Source of the DNA: Candidatus Kaiserbacteria bacterium
GTDB lineage: Bacteria > Patescibacteriota > Minisyncoccia > Phycocordibacterales > UBA2100
Direction: 5' to 3'
Assembly: GCA_016432285.1 (NCBI GenBank)
Contig: CP066682.1
Location: 602,274 to 666,273, forward strand
DNA: 64,000 bases
Shown here: piece after piece, positions 8,657 through 59,291 of the stretch
How positions within the stretch are numbered: position 1 is the stretch's first letter
How the letters are laid out: each line of letters opens with the position of its first letter
Made by a program: the position numbers and the translations under genes
The notes under the pieces: model-generated
Database searches by the model: none
Seen by the model: only the letters and a program-made list of their open reading frames with translations
Told to the model about the DNA's origin: nothing

Positions 8657-10048
8657 CTATGTACCTTTCTGGAGCGCCGCGATGCGGGCGCGGTACGTTG
8701 CGAGCGAGAGATTGCCGGGAGCCCCGAGCGATTGTTTGGTTGCTATGTTTTGCAAAAGGTCCACGCTTCCCGGATCCATGTCGGCCGCCTTCTTGTACGC
8801 ATCACGAAAAGGCATCCCCTCTTTTTGCACGAGGTCGTTGGCGATATCGGCGGTAAAAATACCGGAATTGATCTTGGCGCGGATGCTCTCGGGCTTCGGC
8901 GAGATGCCGGCCACAACGACCGTGGCCACCGCGAGACTGTCCTCGGCTATCTTCGTGCTCTCAAAGAGCGGCTTTTTTATGAGCTGTCCGTCTCTGTTGT
9001 AGCCGGAGAGGAGATTCTTCGCGATGTCTTTGACGATCAGCTGATTGCCGATTACGACAGACACGTTGCCGCGCATGATTTCAAGCGGATCGAGATTACG
9101 CTTATGCGGCATGATGCTAGAGCCAGTCGTGAGCGACGGATCGATCGCGAAAAAGTCGAACTCCTGCGAGGTGAAAAGCAGTAGATCGCCCGCAAACTTC
9201 CCGAGCGTGAGCATGACCTGCGCGAGAGCTTCCATGTACATGCTCTCAAATTTGCCGCGACCATTTTGGGCATACAGCGAATTGATCTGCACGGCGGAAA
9301 AGCCGAGCTCCCGCGTCGTGAATTCCCTATCGATCGGAATCGACGTGCCGAAGCCCGCGGCCGTGCCGAGCGGATTTTTATCGATGTGTGCGCGGACTCC
9401 CGCAAGGAAGCTGGCATCGTCGATGAGGCTTTCTGCGTACGCCGCGAAGTAGTGGCCCACGCTTGAGAGCATCGCTTGCTGCGTGTGCGAGTAGCCGGGC
9501 ATGGGCGCGTCTTTGTACTTCTCGGCCGCGTCGACGAATTTCGTGGCGAGCTCAAGCGCCAGCGTTTGTACACGTGCCAGGTGCGCCTTCATGTAGAGCC
9601 GCGTGGCTACGGCAACTTGGTCGTTCCTGCTTCTTCCGGTGTGGATCTTCTTGCCCGCCTCGCCGATTTTCTCGACGAGGTAATTTTCGATCACCGTGTG
9701 GCAATCTTCGTCCTCGGGTGTGATCGAGATAGCGCCTTTCTCTGCATCTTTTTCCAAATCAGAAAGAGCGCTCTCGATTGAAGCAAGCTCATCCTCCGAG
9801 AGTATGCCGATTTTCTGAAGGCCCTTCGCGTGAGCTAGCGACCCCTCTATATCGAAGGGCAAAAGCTCCACATCAAAAATGTAGTCGGTGCCCGCCGTGT
9901 ATTGCTCCACGACAGGATCGATCCGTGTATCTGTTTTTTTCCAAAGCTTAGCATAGTGCGGATAAGTATAACTCTTTATTGCTCCGTTTTTTCGGCAATA
10001 CGCGCTCTTGCCCCAGCCACAATCTCCGGAATGACGGTGGCATCCCAC
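8657..10048 (-). CDS. argH: argininosuccinate lyase (start codon uncertain)
   Basis: HTGRSRNDQVA and GSSIMPHKRN fumarate-lyase signatures; the conserved KLW N-terminus begins near 9955 where no in-frame ATG/GTG/TTG exists, so the ORF-derived start at 10048 is provisional. Confidence 0.85.
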   Translation of the reverse strand: MGCHRHSGDCGWGKSAYCRKNGAIKSYTYPHYAKLWKKTDTRIDPVVEQYTAGTDYIFDVELLPFDIEGSLAHAKGLQKIGILSEDELASIESALSDLEKDAEKGAISITPEDEDCHTVIENYLVEKIGEAGKKIHTGRSRNDQVAVATRLYMKAHLARVQTLALELATKFVDAAEKYKDAPMPGYSHTQQAMLSSVGHYFAAYAESLIDDASFLAGVRAHIDKNPLGTAAGFGTSIPIDREFTTRELGFSAVQINSLYAQNGRGKFESMYMEALAQVMLTLGKFAGDLLLFTSQEFDFFAIDPSLTTGSSIMPHKRNLDPLEIMRGNVSVVIGNQLIVKDIAKNLLSGYNRDGQLIKKPLFESTKIAEDSLAVATVVVAGISPKPESIRAKINSGIFTADIANDLVQKEGMPFRDAYKKAADMDPGSVDLLQNIATKQSLGAPGNLSLATYRARIAALQKGT

Positions 10049-31576: not shown

Positions 31577-32062
31577 GTGTTTGCTGGCGCGCGGGAGGCA
31601 TTTCGCCTCGGAGGATTAACCATGACGCATGCTCTGACGGCTCAGGCTGCACAAGCAACTCTCGGCCCATTCCAGCAGGCGGCGAACAGGCTGAAACAGT
31701 TCGCAGTCGACTGCAAGGTTCCGAACGCCGCTAAGATCAAATTCGATGGGCAACTTGACCTCGAATGGAAGAAGGCGTTGGAGATGATTTTCATTGACAA
31801 CGTTCTTCGACGAAGATTCGACTATGGGGTTTTGCGCGAGGTTCGCGATTCTCTCGTTCCGATCATGGGGCGCTGGAGTTTTGTCGGCGATATCGGGCAG
31901 AACGCGGGGCATTACCAGTTTCTGGGACTTGTCCGGCGAATGGCGCAAACAGAAGCACGACTCAATATCGTGCGCTGGAACGCCCAACGCGACAAACTAA
32001 GAGCAGAACTCCATCGTTTGACCGACTGGCGTGCCATCAACAATCTATTATCCTGGGATTGA
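31577..32062 (+). CDS. hypothetical protein
   Basis: 161-aa ORF directly downstream of tRNA-Gln; no family recognised; followed by a terminator. Confidence 0.45.
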   Translation: MFAGAREAFRLGGLTMTHALTAQAAQATLGPFQQAANRLKQFAVDCKVPNAAKIKFDGQLDLEWKKALEMIFIDNVLRRRFDYGVLREVRDSLVPIMGRWSFVGDIGQNAGHYQFLGLVRRMAQTEARLNIVRWNAQRDKLRAELHRLTDWRAINNLLSWD

Positions 32063-32078
32063 CGAGTGGGCGCGAACG

Positions 32079-32116
32079 CAGCGAGGCTCCGCAAGGGTCC
32101 TCGCTGCAATTTTTAA
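32079..32116 (+). terminator. rho-independent terminator
   Basis: CAGCGAGG-12nt-CCTCGCTG then CAATTTTTAATTT. Confidence 0.5.
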
Positions 32117-32183
32117 TTTGCATTCTCCTCCATTCGTGCCAAAGAGGTCGACGTCAAACCAAACACGCAACACGAATAACCAA

Positions 32184-32945
32184 TTACTCGACGCGGGTGT
32201 AGGTGAGCACGCCGCCGCGGTCCATATAGATCAGCTCAAGCTGATCGGGCGTCATTTTCGTCACTTTGAAGTTCAGATTGTCGGCCTGCGTGCCGCTCAT
32301 CGTAAGCTGGAGGTATGCGGTGTCTGGCTCGATCGGAAAGGCGACCGTAACGGGCTTTTCTTTCGTAAAGACCTTCCACGTGCCCGTAGAGACTGATTTA
32401 TTCTCGTACCAGTCTGTCACCGTGCCGTTTTCCATGAATATCCGCGCGGATTTCGGATCGTCCGTCGCTTGCCACTTGCCAAGAATGCTCTCGCTCACGA
32501 TAACCACGAGATCCTGCTGCAAGCCTCCACCTTCGCCCGGATCACCCCAGTTCCACGGCGCCATGTCGGTGCTCGGCTTCGGATTGCAGACGGCCATCTT
32601 CTCCCCCACCGTCAGTTGCACTTCTTCACCTGCCCCGGAGAAAACGACGAGCGGGCCCGTTGTGGTCTCAAAGTGCGCGGCGTCGCCCATCTTGGCGAGT
32701 TTGATCGTGCCTGTGAACAGAGCCTGCGCCCCGGCCTCAAGCGTGATCTCGCTCACATCGGCCGAAGGACTCATGGAGAACTCCGAGCCGTTGTCGCAGA
32801 CGTAGGCGTATGTCCCCATGTCAGAGTTCATCGCAGCGTCCTGCGTCTTGGTGCTCTGGAGATACCACAGCACACCACCGATAATCACGATCGCGCCCAA
32901 AACCCATGTGAAGATTTTCATACCCGCAGGATAGCGCCCCTTCAC
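32184..32945 (-). CDS. membrane-anchored secreted protein of unknown function
   Basis: 253 aa; N-terminal TM/signal; overlaps dnaX stop by 4 nt. Confidence 0.55.
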   Translation of the reverse strand: MKGRYPAGMKIFTWVLGAIVIIGGVLWYLQSTKTQDAAMNSDMGTYAYVCDNGSEFSMSPSADVSEITLEAGAQALFTGTIKLAKMGDAAHFETTTGPLVVFSGAGEEVQLTVGEKMAVCNPKPSTDMAPWNWGDPGEGGGLQQDLVVIVSESILGKWQATDDPKSARIFMENGTVTDWYENKSVSTGTWKVFTKEKPVTVAFPIEPDTAYLQLTMSGTQADNLNFKVTKMTPDQLELIYMDRGGVLTYTRVE

Positions 32946-49429: not shown

Positions 49430-49906
49430 ATGAGAATCCGATTCCAGATGCGGTACTGGTGGAATCGAATGTTTTGGTTTGCCGCCCGCCCCATCCGCAG
49501 CGTGTATGCGTTCGTATTTAGGCCGCGGCGAAGAACCGCAAAGATTTTGATAAGAAGCGACAATAATATACTTCTCGTACGACCAAACTATGGGCACCGC
49601 AAGTGGACACTCCCCGGTGGCAAAGTGGAGGGCCGAGAATCATACGAGGATGCCGCTCACCGCGAGGTGCTCGAGGAAACGGGACTTCAGCTACGGTTCG
49701 TGAGGGCAATAGGACGGCATGAAAATATCTGGGAGAATTATCGCAACACTGTTGAATATTTTCTCGCAGCGCCCGCCAGTATCGATCCGGTCGTCGATGG
49801 GATAGAAATCAAAGAAGCCGGGTGGTTTCCGATGGATGTGCTGCCATCCGACCGATCAGCAGGCGTCGATCGCTGTTTGCAAATGTATAAACAAACGCCG
49901 CCTTAA
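49430..49906 (+). CDS. NUDIX hydrolase
   Basis: [24 protein letters not shown] Nudix box; ORF begins 2 nt after tRNA-Tyr so the true start is probably an internal Met (49451 or 49469). Confidence 0.75.
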
Positions 49907-54827: not shown

Positions 54828-56330
54828 ATGAACGCCACCAAGCACACAGAGGAACGTCCACCGATCGTGGTCGTCATGGGGCACGTGGATCACGGTAAAT
54901 CCACGCTCCTCGATTTCATCCGCAAATCAAATACAGTCGCCAAGGAAGCCGGCGGCATCACGCAGCACGTTGCCGCCTACGAGGTGGAACGCGAGAAGGA
55001 AGGGCAGAAGCGGCGCATCACCTTCATCGACACTCCCGGGCACGCAGCGTTTGCGGCGATCAGGGCGCGCGGCGCCAACGTGGCCGATATCGCGATTCTC
55101 GTAGTGGCCGCCGACGACGGCGTGAAGGCGCAGACGCTTGAAGCCCTCCAGCAGATCCGCGATGCCAAGATCCCCTTCGTGGTGGCCATCAACAAAATCG
55201 ACAAACCGAACGCCGACCTCAACCGCACGCAAGCCTCTCTCATGGAAAAGGAGGTCTACCTCGAGAAGCTGGGCGGCGACGTGCCGTGGGCGGCGATCTC
55301 GGCGAAGACCGGGGCGGGCGTCGAGGGGCTGCTTGACCTCATTCTGATCGTGGCCGAGCTCCATGAATTGAAGGGCAGCCCCAGCGCTGACGCAGAGGGC
55401 TACGTGATCGAAGCGCACCGCGACCAAAAGCGCGGCCTCGCAGCCACGCTCGTGATCCGCAACGGGCACCTCCGAGGCGGCATGGCGGTGCTCGCCGGAA
55501 GGGCGATAGCGCCGGTGCGCATCCTCGAAGCGACGACCGGCAAGACGCTTCGCGATGCGACATTCTCCACGCCAGTGCAGCTCGTCGGCTTTGACGAGCT
55601 GCCGCGGGTAGGCGAAGCCTTCAAGGCGTACAAGAACAAAAAAGAGGCGGAGGCGGCCCGTCCGAAGCCGGAGGCCCCGGTCAATCGCGCGCCGCAGGCC
55701 GCTCCCGAAGACGAGGAAGGGCACTTTGCCATGCCGGTCATCGTGCGCGCTGACACCACCGGCTCGCTCGAGGCGATCACGCACGAAGTAGTTACCATCG
55801 GCGATGAGAAGGATTACGTTTCGATCGTCCAGTCGGGCATCGGCACGATCTCCGAAAGCGACGTGAAAGCTGCGCTCGCCGGCCGCAACCCGGCGGTCGT
55901 GATCGGCTTCAACGTCGGCGTTGACGAGGTGGCCAAGGAGTTTGCGCGACAGCACGGCCTTCGGATCGAGCTTTTCGACATCATCTACAAACTCACCGAG
56001 CGTCTCGCCGAGCTCCTGAAAGAAACCCGGCCACGCCGAGAAGTGGAACAGGTATTCGGCCGTGCGAAAGTCTTGAAGCAATTCAGCAGCCGCAAGGACC
56101 TCCACGTGATTGGCGGCAAGGTGGCCGAAGGCTATTTGCAACGCGGCACCTCGGTGCGCGCCCTGCGGCGCGGCGTCGTGGTAGGCGTCGGCAAAATCCA
56201 AAACATGCAGGCCAACAAGCAGGACGTGAACCGAGTCGAAACGGGCGGCGAGTTCGGCGCGCAGGTGGAGAGCGCCTTCGAGATCATGGAGGGCGATTCG
56301 CTCGAATGTTTTTCGGTCACGATGGCGTAG
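54828..56330 (+). CDS. infB: translation initiation factor IF-2, short form
   Basis: [17 protein letters not shown]1, DTPGH G3, NKID G4; no long N-terminal domain. Confidence 0.9.
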
Positions 56331-56332
56331 GT

Positions 56333-56656
56333 ATGTCTTCCCGACGGGAAATACAAGTGGCGGAGACGCTCCAGCATCTTGCGGGAGAGTATTTCGTGCG
56401 GGAGTCCAATCGCGAATCGCTCATGACGATCACGCGCGCCGAGATCGCGCCGAACTTGAAGAGCATAACGATTTTTTTCTCGGTGTTGCCGGAGAACTTT
56501 GAGGAGAAGGTGCTCGATTTCGCCAAACGATCACGCAGCGACTTTCGCGAATACGTCAAAAAGCACAGCTTTCTGCATCCGGTGCCGATGATCGACTTCG
56601 AGATCGACTACGGTGAGAAGAACCGTCAGCGCATCGACGACCTTACGCGCTCCTAA
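56333..56656 (+). CDS. rbfA: ribosome-binding factor A
   Basis: 108 aa directly after infB; KH-like RbfA fold motifs (LMTITRAEIAPNLKSITIFFSVL). Confidence 0.8.
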   Translation: MSSRREIQVAETLQHLAGEYFVRESNRESLMTITRAEIAPNLKSITIFFSVLPENFEEKVLDFAKRSRSDFREYVKKHSFLHPVPMIDFEIDYGEKNRQRIDDLTRS

Positions 56657-56699: not shown

Positions 56700-56772
56700 G
56701 GCCACATGGCGAAGTAGCAACGCGGCGGTCTGCAAAACCGCTACTGGGTGGGTGCAACTCCCACTGTGGCCT
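56700..56772 (+). tRNA. tRNA-Cys-like cloverleaf (anticodon GCA, U73 discriminator) with atypical D and T loops
   Basis: GGCCACA/TGTGGCC acceptor, GCGGT-CTGCAAA-ACCGC anticodon arm, GTGGG-TGCAACT-CCCAC T-arm (TGC not TTC), D-loop lacks GG; ends 1 nt before the methyltransferase ATG. Confidence 0.45.
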
Positions 56773-56773
56773 C

Positions 56774-57577
56774 ATGAAAAAAAGGATCAATGATCTTGAT
56801 CTTTCAAAGTGGAAAAAGTACGAGGATCTCTGGACCGACAGTCTCTGGATGATCGACGCGCGCGACCGAAGCGGCGCGCACACCAACACTTACCACGGCA
56901 ATTTCGTGCCCCAGATCCCCCACCAGCTGATGCGCCGCTTCACCAAAAGGGGCGACGTGGTGCTCGACGGCTTCCTCGGCAGCGGTACGACGCTGATCGA
57001 AGCGAAACGCCTCGGGAGGTGCGGCATCGGCGTGGAGCTTCTGCCGCAGGTCGCGAATCGCGCCAAGAAGAATGTGCAGGCACAGGAAGGCGCGGGAAAG
57101 AGTGAAATTGTCGTCGCCGATAGCACGACGAAAAAAGCACACGCAGGAGTGGCGACGGCACTCAAGAGTATGAGGAAAAAATCTGCGCAGCTCCTGCTAC
57201 TGCACCCGCCGTATCACGACATCATCAAGTTCAGCAGCAAAAGGGGGGATTTGAGCAACGCAACGACCGTCGAGGAATTCACGCGGCGCTTCGGCGATGT
57301 GGTCGCCAATCTCTGCCCCTTCCTCGCAAAAGGCGGACATGTGGCGGTGGTGATCGGCGACAAGTACTCAAACAGCGAGTGGGTGCCGCTCGGCTTCTAT
57401 CTCTTGCAGGAGACGCTGAAGCGCGATCCATCGCTCAGGCTGAAGAGCGTGATCATCAAAAATATGGCGGGCAATCGCGCGAAGCAGAATCAGGGGCGCC
57501 TGTGGCGCTACCGCGCCCTCAAGGGCGGGTACTATATTTTTAAGCACGAGTACGTACTCCTTTTCAAAAAAAGCTGA
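56774..57577 (+). CDS. SAM-dependent N6/N4 DNA methyltransferase-like protein (FxGxGTT then HPPY motifs)
   Basis: LDGFLGSGTT (motif I) then LLLHPPYHDI ((D/N/S)PPY-type motif IV); no restriction partner nearby. Confidence 0.65.
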   Translation: MKKRINDLDLSKWKKYEDLWTDSLWMIDARDRSGAHTNTYHGNFVPQIPHQLMRRFTKRGDVVLDGFLGSGTTLIEAKRLGRCGIGVELLPQVANRAKKNVQAQEGAGKSEIVVADSTTKKAHAGVATALKSMRKKSAQLLLLHPPYHDIIKFSSKRGDLSNATTVEEFTRRFGDVVANLCPFLAKGGHVAVVIGDKYSNSEWVPLGFYLLQETLKRDPSLRLKSVIIKNMAGNRAKQNQGRLWRYRALKGGYYIFKHEYVLLFKKS

Positions 57578-57591
57578 TAGAGTATCCGCAC

Positions 57592-57674
57592 GCCGGGGTG
57601 GCGAAATTGGTCATACGCGCGCGACTTAAGATCGCGTTCCGCAAGGAGTGTGGGTTCGAGTCCCACCCCCGGCA
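57592..57674 (+). tRNA. tRNA-Leu (anticodon TAA)
   Basis: GCCGGGG/CCCCGGC acceptor, anticodon loop CTTAAGA, long variable arm, GTGGG-TTCGAGT-CCCAC. Confidence 0.8.
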
Positions 57675-57890
57675 CAACAACAGTTGAAGCGGGAGCGAAG
57701 CTCTCGCTGATCACTGTTGTCTGCCGGAGTGGGACGAGAAGGCGAGCGGCGGAGGCTCCGCCAACAGGCGGAGCGCCGTGAGCAGGGCCGAGAGGAGTGA
57801 GGAGCGACGGCGACGAAAGAGCTCTTGGCCGAGCAAACTCACCGGCACAACCCTACAAAACGAATCTTTTTCGTGTAGAATCTCACAGAT

Positions 57891-57963
57891 CCGCCCATAG
57901 CTCAGTTGGTAGAGCAGTCGCCTCTTAAGCGAACGGTCGTAGGTTCGAATCCTACTGGGCGGA
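57891..57963 (+). tRNA. tRNA-Lys (anticodon CTT)
   Basis: CCGCCCA/TGGGCGG acceptor, GCTC-AGTTGGTA-GAGC D-arm, anticodon loop CTCTTAA, TAGG-TTCGAAT-CCTA T-arm; 5' C1 is unusual. Confidence 0.7.
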
Positions 57964-57970
57964 CAATGAT

Positions 57971-58354
57971 ATGAACATGGGAGAAGAGCGTTACGTGGTC
58001 GATATGCGTATCAAGGAGCACGCCCTCGATCTGGAGGTTCGCTTTTTTACACATTGGTCAGTGCTATCCGGCGGCACATTCTCACTCTTGGTTCCGCTAG
58101 TACAGAGCTTAAAAAAGCCGATGTCCGCCGTTGTGTTTTTTCAAATGGGAGAGGTCTTTTTGATAATTTCGCTCTTAGTTGCTGCATTGGGATTATTTGC
58201 CTCAAAGAACTATGCGAGGGAACGGTCATTCCACGGAGACCCCGCATCATCGTTGAGTAAGACGACGAAGGATTTGTGTGGGAAGACGGCGCTGGTTTCA
58301 TATGCACTGGGAATAATTGCGATAGCTATTTTCATAGACAGCAATCTGCTATAA
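57971..58354 (+). CDS. low-GC membrane protein of unknown function
   Basis: 127 aa, three TM helices; composition visibly AT-richer than surroundings; flanked by tRNA-Lys and tRNA-Leu. Confidence 0.5.
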   Translation: MNMGEERYVVDMRIKEHALDLEVRFFTHWSVLSGGTFSLLVPLVQSLKKPMSAVVFFQMGEVFLIISLLVAALGLFASKNYARERSFHGDPASSLSKTTKDLCGKTALVSYALGIIAIAIFIDSNLL

Positions 58355-58364
58355 CTAGCGAATC

Positions 58365-58446
58365 GGGCGAGTGGCGGAACTGGTACACGCGCACGGCTTA
58401 GGACCGTGTCCCGAAAGGGATGAGAGTTCGAGTCTCTCCTCGCCCA
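58365..58446 (+). tRNA. tRNA-Leu (anticodon TAG)
   Basis: GGGCGAG/CTCGCCC acceptor, anticodon loop CTTAGGA, long variable arm, GAGAG-TTCGAGT-CTCTC. Confidence 0.8.
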
Positions 58447-58472
58447 CACTTCGACAAGCTCAGTGTAAACAC

Positions 58473-59291
58473 ATGGATTTCAAATACTTTTCCAAGAATG
58501 GCGTGGCCCTTCCTTTGGCCGAAGCGGTCGTGCCGCTTTCGAATATCGAATACCAATACGGCTTCGGGGTGTACGAAAACGTGCGGGTCGTGCGCGGCCG
58601 GCCGCTCTTTCTCGACGATCACGTTGAGCGGCTCGAAGAATCGGCGCGGATCATCGGTCTCGAGCATCCGTTCGAAAGTACTGCGATACATCATAGTGTC
58701 GACGAATTGATCGCGAAGAATGAGATCGACACTGCAAATCTGAAGCTGCTTCTCCTCGGCGGCCGCAGCGAGGCAGAAGCGAGCCTTTTTATACTCCCCC
58801 TCAATCCCCTTTTCCCCGACAAAAAAATCTATCGCGACGGCGTGCTCTTGGTGAGCCACCAGTACGAACGGCTCTTTCCGCACGCGAAGACTCTCAACAT
58901 GCTCGGGAGCTTCCTCGCCTACCGCAAGGCGAAAGCGGCAGACGCGTACGATGCGCTCTTGATCGACCGCCAAGGCTTCGTCACCGAAGGCACCCGCACC
59001 AACTTCTTCGCGCTCAAAGGGAAAACGATTTATTCGCCTCCGGAATCCGAGATTCTCCTCGGTGTTACCCGGAAGTACGTGCTTGAGGCCGCGCATAGGA
59101 GCGGATTCGCGCTAGAGGAAAGAAAGATCACTCTTGCGGACCTGAAGGAATACGACGCCGCGTTCATCACGAGTACCTCTTCAAAAATCCTTCCGGTGCG
59201 GCAAATCGACGACGCCTCGGTCGACGTGAGCGCGCCCGCGCTGCGGGAGCTGATGACTGCGTTCGACGACTTTTTACAAAAGACTACTTGA
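58473..59291 (+). CDS. class IV aminotransferase (BCAT / D-amino-acid AT / PabC-like)
   Basis: 272 aa from MDFKYF; fold-type IV PLP enzyme motifs (E..R..G, LLGVTR); the longer ORF would overlap tRNA-Leu. Confidence 0.75.
   Translation: MDFKYFSKNGVALPLAEAVVPLSNIEYQYGFGVYENVRVVRGRPLFLDDHVERLEESARIIGLEHPFESTAIHHSVDELIAKNEIDTANLKLLLLGGRSEAEASLFILPLNPLFPDKKIYRDGVLLVSHQYERLFPHAKTLNMLGSFLAYRKAKAADAYDALLIDRQGFVTEGTRTNFFALKGKTIYSPPESEILLGVTRKYVLEAAHRSGFALEERKITLADLKEYDAAFITSTSSKILPVRQIDDASVDVSAPALRELMTAFDDFLQKTT

Follow-up and report, generated by a model that had tools for sequence, protein, structure and literature searches.

A tRNA gene array as a probable recombination and insertion hot spot in Candidatus Kaiserbacteria, with a family of structured elements at tRNA 3' ends

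Genomic islands that tyrosine integrases insert into tRNA and transfer-messenger RNA (tmRNA) genes leave a recognisable signature, consisting of a regenerated tRNA gene and a displaced 3' fragment (Islander, PMC4383910). The tRNA gene cluster of phage T4 contains a free-standing homing endonuclease gene of the GIY-YIG type, SegB (PMC2330249), and genomes of the Candidate Phyla Radiation (CPR) carry many more methylases than restriction enzymes (bioRxiv 10.64898/2026.07.13.738296). Here we describe a locus that shares features with each of these systems and also differs from each. It is an array of four tRNA genes within a 64,000-nucleotide stretch of Candidatus Kaiserbacteria contig CP066682.1 (positions 602,274 to 666,273; hereafter the window), and its gaps hold a solitary DNA methyltransferase gene, a structured element of about 175 nucleotides without an open reading frame (ORF), and a gene for a small membrane protein, ORF127. 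Comparison with related loci supports the view of the array as a hot spot where the Kaiserbacteria clade takes up variable and partly foreign cargo. The structured element, which trails a tRNA, represents an undescribed family and is the genuinely new item of the locus.

The tRNAs of the array, all on the + strand together with the genes and the spacer between them, are tRNA-Cys(GCA) (56700..56773), tRNA-Leu(TAA) (57592..57675), tRNA-Lys(CTT) (57891..57964) and tRNA-Leu(TAG) (58365..58447). They were identified with ARAGORN and score 52.8, 58.2, 70.5 and 55.5 bits, respectively, in Rfam. The methyltransferase gene (56774..57577) fills the gap between the first two, the element (57676..57851) lies directly behind tRNA-Leu(TAA), and ORF127 (57971..58354) occupies the gap between tRNA-Lys and tRNA-Leu(TAG). 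A first-pass annotation had listed these features in the same order, and all of them are present; what it called a tRNA-Cys-like element is a normal tRNA-Cys. Our analysis directly establishes the anatomy of this locus, its synteny, the presence or absence of its parts in relatives, its composition, and the fold and covariation of the element.

For comparison we collected 18 related loci by looking up the closest homologues of the methyltransferase and by scanning metagenomes with a profile of ribosome-binding factor A (RbfA). Their initiation factor 2 (IF-2) proteins are 45-76% identical to that of the window. In all 18 loci the genes infB and rbfA are followed by tRNA-Cys, which stands directly downstream of rbfA in every relative, and by tRNA-Leu(TAA); where the contig extends, tRNA-Lys(CTT), tRNA-Leu(TAG) and a class IV aminotransferase gene come next. 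One relative, L093, has a compact array, with its four tRNAs within 400 nucleotides and gaps of 19, 40 and 26 nucleotides. In each of the others at least one gap holds differing content, made up of unrelated genes. This cargo includes membrane proteins, a CAP-domain protein, spermidine-synthase-like proteins, a DUF155 protein and a GNAT acetyltransferase, as well as free-standing endonuclease genes of the GIY-YIG family in L081, L097, L098 and L107, of the LAGLIDADG family in L096 and of the HNH family in L102. No integrase, intact or decayed, was found in the slot cargo of the 18 loci. Because gap contents differ so widely among loci with the same four tRNAs, we consider it likely that the conserved array is a recombination and insertion hot spot, three gaps of which have been filled in the window, by the methyltransferase, the element and ORF127.

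The tRNAs themselves are rearranged in several relatives. tRNA-Cys is inverted in L090, L092, L094, L095, L097 and L107, and tRNA-Lys in L084 and L101. Partial duplicates accompany the inverted genes, comprising the 5' end of tRNA-Cys or the 3' half of tRNA-Lys from the anticodon arm on, about 47 nucleotides away (L090 1880-2046; L107 1-105; L084 7740-7825; L089 3386-3476). Inverted tRNAs and partial duplicates look like scars of repeated recombination at tRNAs. Two alleles of the T-stem/acceptor end of tRNA-Leu(TAA), ..CCCACCCCCGGCA and ..GCCCACCTGACCCA, show a patchy distribution across sister lineages, with L093, L095, L098 and L100 on one side and the window, L081, L084, L096 and others on the other. 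In L096 the functional tRNA-Leu(TAA) carries allele 1 and is followed (9321-9423) by an element remnant, the 3' end of allele 2 and then the native flank; the arrangement looks as though the entire tRNA gene had been swapped out. Duplications also affect 5' ends: a leader of about 75 nucleotides with two hairpins lies between the promoter box and tRNA-Lys in L091 (~1480-1554), L094 (~745-820) and L100 (~825-899), and opens with a copy of the tRNA-Lys 5' end, CCGCCCATA.

The structured element (57676..57851, + strand) lies in the Leu-Lys spacer (57676-57890), whose 215 nucleotides are 60% purine and fall in the top 1.4% of 215-nucleotide windows, confirming the purine richness reported in the first pass. 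The element begins with hairpin 1 (57677..57720), formed by ACAACAGT...ACTGTTGT around an inner GCGAAGC-type hairpin; this stem appears in the predicted structures and covaries (helices 1-2). Hairpin 1 is followed by a left arm, TGCCGGAGTGGG (57722..57733), which is an inverted copy of the tRNA-Leu 3' end and pairs with 57838-57847 in the minimum free energy (MFE) structure; its GTGGGAC is still complementary to the intact tRNA-Leu(TAA). Hairpins 2 and 3 (57742..57830) contain the core GAGCAGGGCCGAG and the loop GAGCGACGGCGAC, and their helices (5-9) are 90-100% paired and covary. The element closes with CTCACCGGCACAAC (57838..57851), a decayed direct repeat of the tRNA-Leu(TAA) 3' end. The last 10 nucleotides of this repeat equal 57669-57678, that is, CCGGCACAAC recurs at 57842-57851, and the T-stem part of the distal repeat is lost.

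The predicted structure is strongly supported. The MFE of the window element is -94 kcal/mol (z = -5.0), compared with -84 kcal/mol (z = -3.8) for the antisense strand. An alignment of five members contains 53 base pairs, 25 of them with compensatory changes and one a G.U pair that is invariant in all five; 91% of its cells are paired, as against 32-41% in slid controls, and none of 500 shuffles matched the covariation of the element. A covariance model scores the window element at 156 bits and finds no second copy in the window, and in the relatives it recovers ten further or founding members. Eight of these ten lie directly 3' of a tRNA on the same strand; of the other two, one is separated from the 3' end of tRNA-Lys by about 1 kb, and the L093 member has no adjoining tRNA. 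One of the preceding tRNAs is unidentified; the others are Tyr, Cys, Lys, Leu(TAA) and Leu(TAG). Both the loop motif and the core motif are confined to Kaiserbacteria-type loci, and the covariance model has no match in loci of other Patescibacteria.

Members of the family share a common layout: a full tRNA, a hairpin, an inverted T-stem/acceptor-3' arm, two further hairpins, and a direct repeat of the tRNA 3' end. The two-hairpin domain has the core GAGCAGGGCCGAG or GAGGCGGTGCCCAG and the loop GAGCGNCGGCGAG, and the 55-nucleotide core of the window element (57777-57831) is 82-91% identical to the copies in L101, L093 and L098, which lie elsewhere. Perfect repeats of the tRNA end are found behind tRNA-Tyr (16 nucleotides) and tRNA-Cys (18) of L098, tRNA-Leu(TAG) of L096 (17) and tRNA-Tyr of L101 (19), as well as in L087 (15). 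A blind scan with the last 14 nucleotides of each tRNA detected a downstream repeat for 10 of 77 tRNAs in the relatives and an upstream repeat for none, and no downstream repeat for any of 21 tRNAs in loci of other phyla. In the window, too, the search for direct repeats of tRNA 3' ends that the first-pass annotation had proposed gave a positive result, in the decayed copy of the tRNA-Leu(TAA) end that closes the element.

Comparison of empty and filled sites delimits the insertion. The distal repeat and its downstream flank align to the tRNA-Leu end and flank of L094, and the native Leu-Lys spacer, which carries the promoter box of tRNA-Lys, begins after the distal repeat. In the window this native spacer (57852..57890) contains a hairpin and an extended -10-like box, TGTAGAAT (57874-57881), 9 nucleotides upstream of tRNA-Lys. 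It is homologous to the 37-40-nucleotide spacers of the 'empty' sites in L093 and L095, which have TGTACAAT at equal distance. Since the native spacer resumes after the distal repeat, 57676-57851 is an insertion or a duplication at the tRNA end, and because that repeat has decayed, the insertion is old. When the element is folded jointly with tRNA-Leu, the left arm takes the 3' strand of the tRNA and the 5' strand of the tRNA pairs with the distal repeat. This predicted exchange of pairing partners could be relevant at the RNA or the DNA level.

Our preferred view is that the element is a miniature, structured insertion element with tRNA 3' ends as its target. A serious rival, which is not mutually exclusive with this reading and which we regard as possible though not the favoured explanation, is that the element is a resident small RNA gene. 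Its tRNA-like product would be transcribed with the tRNAs, cut by RNase P and RNase Z at an acceptor-like helix, and might influence how the upstream tRNA matures. The strand specificity of the fold and the invariant G.U pair fit an RNA product, as does conservation of the core at the level given above between genomes whose proteins are only about 70% identical. Moreover, the member behind tRNA-Cys in L098 folds into a cloverleaf-like four-way junction, the L093 copy without an adjoining tRNA is preceded by a TGgTACAAT box and followed by a run of A residues, and the left arm captures the tRNA-Leu 3' strand in the joint fold. However, the element occurs sporadically: seven of the eight tRNAs of the window lack it, and L093 and L095 have empty orthologous sites. 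Decay of the distal repeat in the window, L103 and L081 speaks against selection on the helix that it forms, and the same subfamily stands behind differing tRNAs in differing genomes.

Another explanation, which we judge rather unlikely, is that the locus preserves remnants of at least one classical integrase-mediated island in tRNA genes whose integrase has since decayed, as the first-pass annotation proposed. A regenerated tRNA with a displaced 3' fragment is the signature of such islands and is seen at tRNA-Leu(TAA) of the window and at the 10 of 77 tRNAs found in relatives; the duplicates of the tRNA-Lys 3' half in L084 and L089 are typical of anticodon-loop integration scars. Against this, no integrase or fragment of one was seen in any of the 18 related loci, nor at distances up to about 10 kb in the window, and no integrase or recombinase domain was detected in the scanned ORFs of the window (~44 to 64 kb). 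The annotation was thus correct that no integrase is present, but genes for homing endonucleases, rather than traces of integrases, recur across the relatives. The unit bounded by the repeats is a constant structured non-coding module of 140-190 nucleotides, unlike a random deletion remnant; in the window it is 175 nucleotides without an ORF, so no integrase gene lies inside it. Finally, no tRNA-end repeats were found to bracket the methyltransferase, ORF127, or the tRNA-adjacent restriction-modification (R-M) cassettes of other phyla, and the gaps between the methyltransferase gene and its neighbouring tRNAs are 0 (tRNA-Cys) and 14 nucleotides (stop codon to tRNA-Leu(TAA)).

Several known types of element were considered and rejected. 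The left arm is not a retroviral-type primer-binding site, since no copy has TGG (the complement of CCA) before the arm, and it is not the 5' half of an interrupted tRNA, as in L096, the window and the L098 tRNA-Cys copy it is the reverse complement of the 3' part, including T-loop bases. Hairpin 1 lacks the RYYYAAC/GTTRRRY boxes of an integron attC site. A miniature inverted-repeat transposable element (MITE) does not fit either, because the arms vary from copy to copy and match the adjoining tRNA instead of being constant in the family, and the duplication is 14-19 nucleotides of tRNA sequence. The 985 nucleotides between tRNA-Lys and the element in L101 encode no integrase, only a coiled-coil ORF of 98 amino acids, and a tRNA-end repeat with two mismatches after tRNA-Trp of the window is ordinary coding sequence and was judged a chance match. 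Rfam 15 reports only tRNAs in the window at E <= 1; on L093, L098 and L101 it gives no non-tRNA family at gathering score, nor any beyond noise at E <= 10. The element core was also not found in IMG/VR viral contigs (searched with two patterns) or in GenBank phages (blastn). A second, unrelated family of elements trails tRNA-Lys in L095 (3157-3330) and L096 (9498-9615), with an inverted copy of the tRNA end 16 nucleotides past the tRNA, a structured domain and an imperfect direct repeat, in that order.

The gene in the Cys-Leu gap encodes a protein of 267 amino acids that, judged from its sequence, is a solitary amino-methyltransferase of the Type II R-M type. It matches PF01555 (N6_N4_Mtase) in two swapped pieces (E=7e-21; 75.6 bits against a cutoff of 26.7) and the PADLOC model MTase_II PDLC03351 over its full length (residues 3-266; E=1e-102). 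Motif I, DGFLGSGTT (from D65), corresponds to the FxGxG that binds S-adenosylmethionine and is invariant in an alignment of 19 sequences. Motif IV is H144-P-P-Y, likewise invariant in the family, with the canonical PPY kept and histidine in place of D, N or S; motif I precedes motif IV, a circular permutation relative to PF01555. The window protein retains every residue that is invariant in the family and is a functional-looking enzyme, apparently what remains of an incomplete R-M system. The longer segment HPPYHDIIKFS (residues 144-154) is also invariant across the family, and the N-terminal 45 residues (TDSLW, YHGNFxPQIP) are strongly conserved and poorly modelled. A literature search on 'HPPY' methyltransferases returned nothing relevant. 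With its invariant HPPY and its permutation, the enzyme may represent a new specificity or a new chemistry in an R-M family that is very widespread and uncharacterised.

Homologues of this methyltransferase number more than 7000. In species-representative genomes the family occupies at least 587 loci in dozens of bacterial and archaeal phyla at 52-65% identity, with hosts among Patescibacteria, Verrucomicrobia, Acidobacteria, Bacteroidetes/Ignavibacteria, Chloroflexi, Elusimicrobia, Thermotogae and several archaeal phyla. Such a patchy distribution is the pattern expected of horizontal transfer. In phage and plasmid records only a single remote match was found. A partner gene follows on the same strand in 50 of 80 methyltransferase loci, encoding ~275-300 amino acids in 33 and ~390 amino acids in 17. 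The first of these partner families, to which the partner in L084/L088 is homologous, shares a D-x9-DxK motif (L001 GLDFFIDGVSYDQKV; L084 GVDIFFCDQPFDVKI), and the second has weak similarity to PDDEXK/NucS. The two families are best read, from these sequence features, as alternative cognate nucleases. Searches with tblastn, using all neighbouring ORFs of the 80 loci as queries, detected no partner nuclease or remnant of one in the window, the spacer or ORF127. The window gene is thus a solitary methyltransferase and probably the survivor of a cassette whose nuclease was lost.

We also considered whether the protein might be a guanine-N2 methyltransferase of tRNA or rRNA (similar to Trm11, TrmN or RsmD), placed among tRNAs for functional reasons, and regard this as improbable. 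Its position in a tRNA array without a nuclease partner would suit such a role, and the first fold neighbours of its AlphaFold model (predicted local distance difference test score 75.7) are Trm11-type m2G10 tRNA methylases (E=6e-11, template modelling (TM) score 0.50). This ranking is biased, however, because canonical PF01555 enzymes are circularly permuted relative to the window protein and Foldseek disfavours them, and matches at a TM score of about 0.5 are generic to the Rossmann fold. Weak Pfam matches to UPF0020 and Cons_hypoth95 exist and some homologues are labelled 'TRM11 family' or 'RsmD', but UPF0020 (17.4 bits against a cutoff of 22.3) and TIGR01177 (21 against 316) are both below threshold, and a profile search found no THUMP domain. 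Sequence searches, in contrast, rank DNA methylases first, in PF01555 and PADLOC as above and in the PDB, where the best matches are 2zie, M.MboIIA, CcrM, DpnA and N4C enzymes (E=1e-17 to 1e-5) and a tRNA methylase appears only at E=3e-3. The patchy distribution and the nuclease-like neighbours described above also speak against an RNA methylase, as does the lack of the gene at this position in most of the close relatives.

The same slot directly after tRNA-Cys holds the methyltransferase gene in three relatives. L084/L088 retain both the methyltransferase and the nuclease (274 amino acids in L084), and L081 and L107 carry the methyltransferase and a GIY-YIG gene of 81 amino acids. Identity to the window copy is 73% in L081 and L107 and 72% in L084, within the range of IF-2 (72-76%) and RbfA (73-75%) between the window and L081/L084. 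Relative to 35 reference genes, whose GC content at third codon positions (GC3) is 0.726 +/- 0.055, the composition of the methyltransferase gene is typical (GC 0.568; GC3 0.754, z = +0.5; codon z = +0.34). As its divergence equals that of IF-2 and RbfA and its codon usage is native, the acquisition predates the split of the window, L081, L084 and L107 lineages; the gene is an old, ameliorated acquisition and not recent cargo. The first-pass annotation had treated it as acquired cargo at a tRNA integration site, and its normal GC and codon usage and its conserved place in three relatives are the outcome that the annotation had named as refuting this claim.

Methyltransferase genes of this family are found near tRNAs elsewhere. 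In L003, L012, L018, L020 and L026, which belong to other small-genome lineages, the methyltransferase or R-M cassette starts 63-389 nucleotides after a tRNA on the same strand, giving 5 of about 75 loci where a rough estimate predicts fewer than one. L005 and L108 belong beside these loci; L005, whose IF-2 is only 39% identical to that of the window, has its cassette 1.3 kb from the same infB-rbfA-tRNA-Cys-tRNA-Leu(TAA) cluster.

ORF127 (57971..58354, + strand) encodes a membrane protein of 127 amino acids with two strongly hydrophobic, presumably transmembrane segments and has a foreign composition by codon statistics. The window has an overall GC content of 0.586, and in a profile of 400-nucleotide bins the one at 58001-58400 is the minimum of all 160 (0.482). 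The gene itself has a GC of 0.466, a GC3 of 0.54 (z = -3.4) and a synonymous-codon z of -5.8. Neither Pfam nor NCBIfam contains a match. Its single close homologue, P0122 on L087, is 54% identical and likewise lies downstream of a tRNA and a member of the element family; since dN is 0.37 with dS saturated (nonsynonymous and synonymous divergence, respectively), ORF127 is a real gene. Among 1.84 billion representative proteins, a search with its profile found only 34 relatives, of 120-220 amino acids. One distant member, P0123, lies between two tRNA-Met(CAT) genes in a 2.7-kb segment of L110 (2810-5750), next to a 327-amino-acid partner and a Cdd1-domain gene, and the same three-gene order occurs on L111. 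In L081 and L084 the slot of ORF127 holds unrelated genes, and with its foreign codon usage this makes ORF127 the best candidate for a comparatively recent acquisition.

The low GC that the first-pass annotation reported for 57971-58354 is therefore real, and of the two genes that it regarded as horizontally acquired this one is atypical, whereas the methyltransferase is not. Its broader claim of acquired cargo holds for the variable gaps, the mobile methyltransferase family and the foreign ORF127, and fails for the methyltransferase as low-GC cargo. That the locus might simply be a vertically inherited tRNA operon, with the composition dip as the noise of a short hydrophobic gene, is very improbable: the methyltransferase is normal in composition and syntenic in three relatives, and short genes have a noisy GC3, but gap contents differ in nearly every relative, the equally short rbfA has a codon z of +0.05 against -5.8 for ORF127, and the element has covariation and tRNA-end repeats.

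The history that we propose for the hot spot is as follows. A Type II R-M cassette would have entered the Cys-Leu slot before the window, L081, L084 and L107 lineages split. One descendant would have kept the nuclease, two would have swapped it for a small GIY-YIG gene, and the window lineage would have lost it, leaving an intact methyltransferase whose expression probably relies on read-through of the tRNA/rbfA transcript. The 175-nucleotide element would have landed at the 3' end of tRNA-Leu(TAA), or duplicated it, such that the tRNA stayed intact and the element ended in a second copy of the T-stem/acceptor 3' sequence, able to pair with the inverted copy inside it; element and tRNAs would be transcribed together. 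ORF127, the most recent-looking acquisition, would have entered the gap between tRNA-Lys and tRNA-Leu(TAG). Gene conversion driven by homing endonucleases, site-specific recombination at tRNA ends, or both may have mediated these insertions.

Several observations weigh against this account. The array of the window lacks homing endonuclease genes of all three types (GIY-YIG, LAGLIDADG and HNH), and the loci and viral contigs yielded neither a recombinase nor an autonomous parent element. Nor does the account explain how the element acquires, at each site, the end of a different tRNA in both inverted and direct orientation. In a tree of IF-2 the methyltransferase-bearing lineages fall into one clade with L090, which lacks the gene, at 49% support; one gain and one loss are the most parsimonious history and are not proven. 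We infer DNA as the substrate of the methyltransferase in spite of its HPPY motif and of Trm11-type fold neighbours at a generic TM score of 0.5. Finally, the low GC of ORF127 at first and second codon positions stems in part from its hydrophobic residues, leaving GC3 and synonymous codons as the basis for a foreign origin.

The array is flanked by conserved genes. On its left lie infB, encoding IF-2 (54828..56330, + strand; taken from the ORF list; 66-76% identity to IF-2 in 13 relatives with the same downstream synteny), and rbfA (56306..56656, + strand; PF02033, E=2.6e-11), whose probable true start is 56333. On its right lies the class IV aminotransferase gene (58473..59291, + strand; PF01063, E=8e-54), with 59-65% identity to the gene that follows tRNA-Leu(TAG) in relatives. 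A Candidatus Kaiserbacteria metagenome-assembled genome (locus tags HYS26_, 859 kb contig) encodes proteins that match the methyltransferase and ORF127 at 100% identity, and the neighbourhood contains arrays of type IV secretion system (T4SS)-pilin-like genes, typical of CPR bacteria.

An extended -10-like box, TGTGTA(C/G)AAT, is found 8-10 nucleotides before tRNA-Lys in nearly all relatives, and similar boxes follow several elements; from these conserved boxes, the tRNAs of the array may each have their own promoter. A generic promoter scan did not flag the tRNA-Lys box. The start codons of the protein genes are close to tRNA ends: the ATG of the methyltransferase adjoins tRNA-Cys directly (56773/56774), that of ORF127 lies 6 nucleotides past tRNA-Lys, and that of the aminotransferase 25 nucleotides past tRNA-Leu(TAG). 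As these genes start at tRNA 3' ends, tRNA 3' processing would yield leaderless or near-leaderless mRNAs, a layout like 'tRNA punctuation'.

Atypical codon usage is also seen in other genes directly 3' of tRNAs in the window. A NUDIX gene (49430-49906) that starts 2 nucleotides past tRNA-Tyr has a codon z of -3.5, and two ORFs of unknown function after tRNA-Gln (31577-32396) have z values of -3.3 and -4.2. The atypical genes after tRNA-Tyr and tRNA-Gln suggest that tRNA 3' flanks are insertion sites throughout the genome.

Patescibacteria, the bacteria of the CPR, have tiny, gene-dense genomes in which gene gain and loss are poorly understood. The locus described here offers a concrete exchange platform, a housekeeping tRNA array whose gaps are refilled lineage by lineage with no integrase in sight, and the cargo exchanged includes defence genes (the R-M cassette), selfish endonucleases and orphan membrane proteins. 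If the element family is mobile it would represent a new way of targeting tRNA genes, and if it is an RNA gene, a new tRNA mimic. A more far-reaching reading, which we offer tentatively and do not favour, is that the elements form a class of structured nucleic acid, so far undescribed and specific to CPR, that attaches to tRNA 3' ends and in which two copies of the tRNA end, one inverted and one direct, re-form a tRNA-like acceptor/T helix around a conserved two-hairpin core. Such a nucleic acid might be a miniature mobile element, either protein-free or trans-mobilised, for which tRNA ends are both target and termini, or else a tRNA-mimicking RNA that competes for the 3' strand of the upstream tRNA and so controls its maturation. 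Acting alongside homing endonucleases, it would turn tRNA arrays into the main platform of gene exchange in these integrase-poor, ultra-small genomes.

The locus resembles several known systems in part. As in the islands catalogued by Islander, the element is inserted at the 3' part of a tRNA that stays intact, a displaced copy of the 3' end lies at its far end, and repeats occur downstream only. Unlike those islands, the element has no integrase, is about 175 nucleotides long, non-coding and structured, contains an inverted copy of the tRNA end, and has closely related copies at five tRNA species. For endonuclease genes within a tRNA cluster, SegB of phage T4 is the closest documented analogue: relatives of the window carry GIY-YIG, LAGLIDADG and HNH genes between tRNAs, and their tRNA alleles and cargo are mosaic, as expected of co-conversion. 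In contrast to T4, the setting is a cellular CPR chromosome, the array of the window lacks an endonuclease gene, and the endonucleases of the relatives are predicted from their genes. The methyltransferase is like orphan Type II methylases in being intact without a nuclease, with a relative that keeps the two-gene cassette, and fits the surplus of methylases over restriction enzymes in CPR genomes; it differs from them in its motif IV, HPPY, and in its motif order, permuted relative to the PF01555 (beta-class) model. Finally, the element is small, free of ORFs and strongly folded, with several diverged copies per genome, as are MITEs, repetitive extragenic palindrome (REP)-like sequences and the tRNA-like domains of tmRNA and YrlA, and its closing helix imitates a tRNA acceptor and T-stem as in tRNA mimics. 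It differs from all of these in belonging to no Rfam family and in having ends copied from the upstream tRNA, and from tRNA mimics in that the position of the T-loop holds a conserved two-hairpin insert of about 100 nucleotides.

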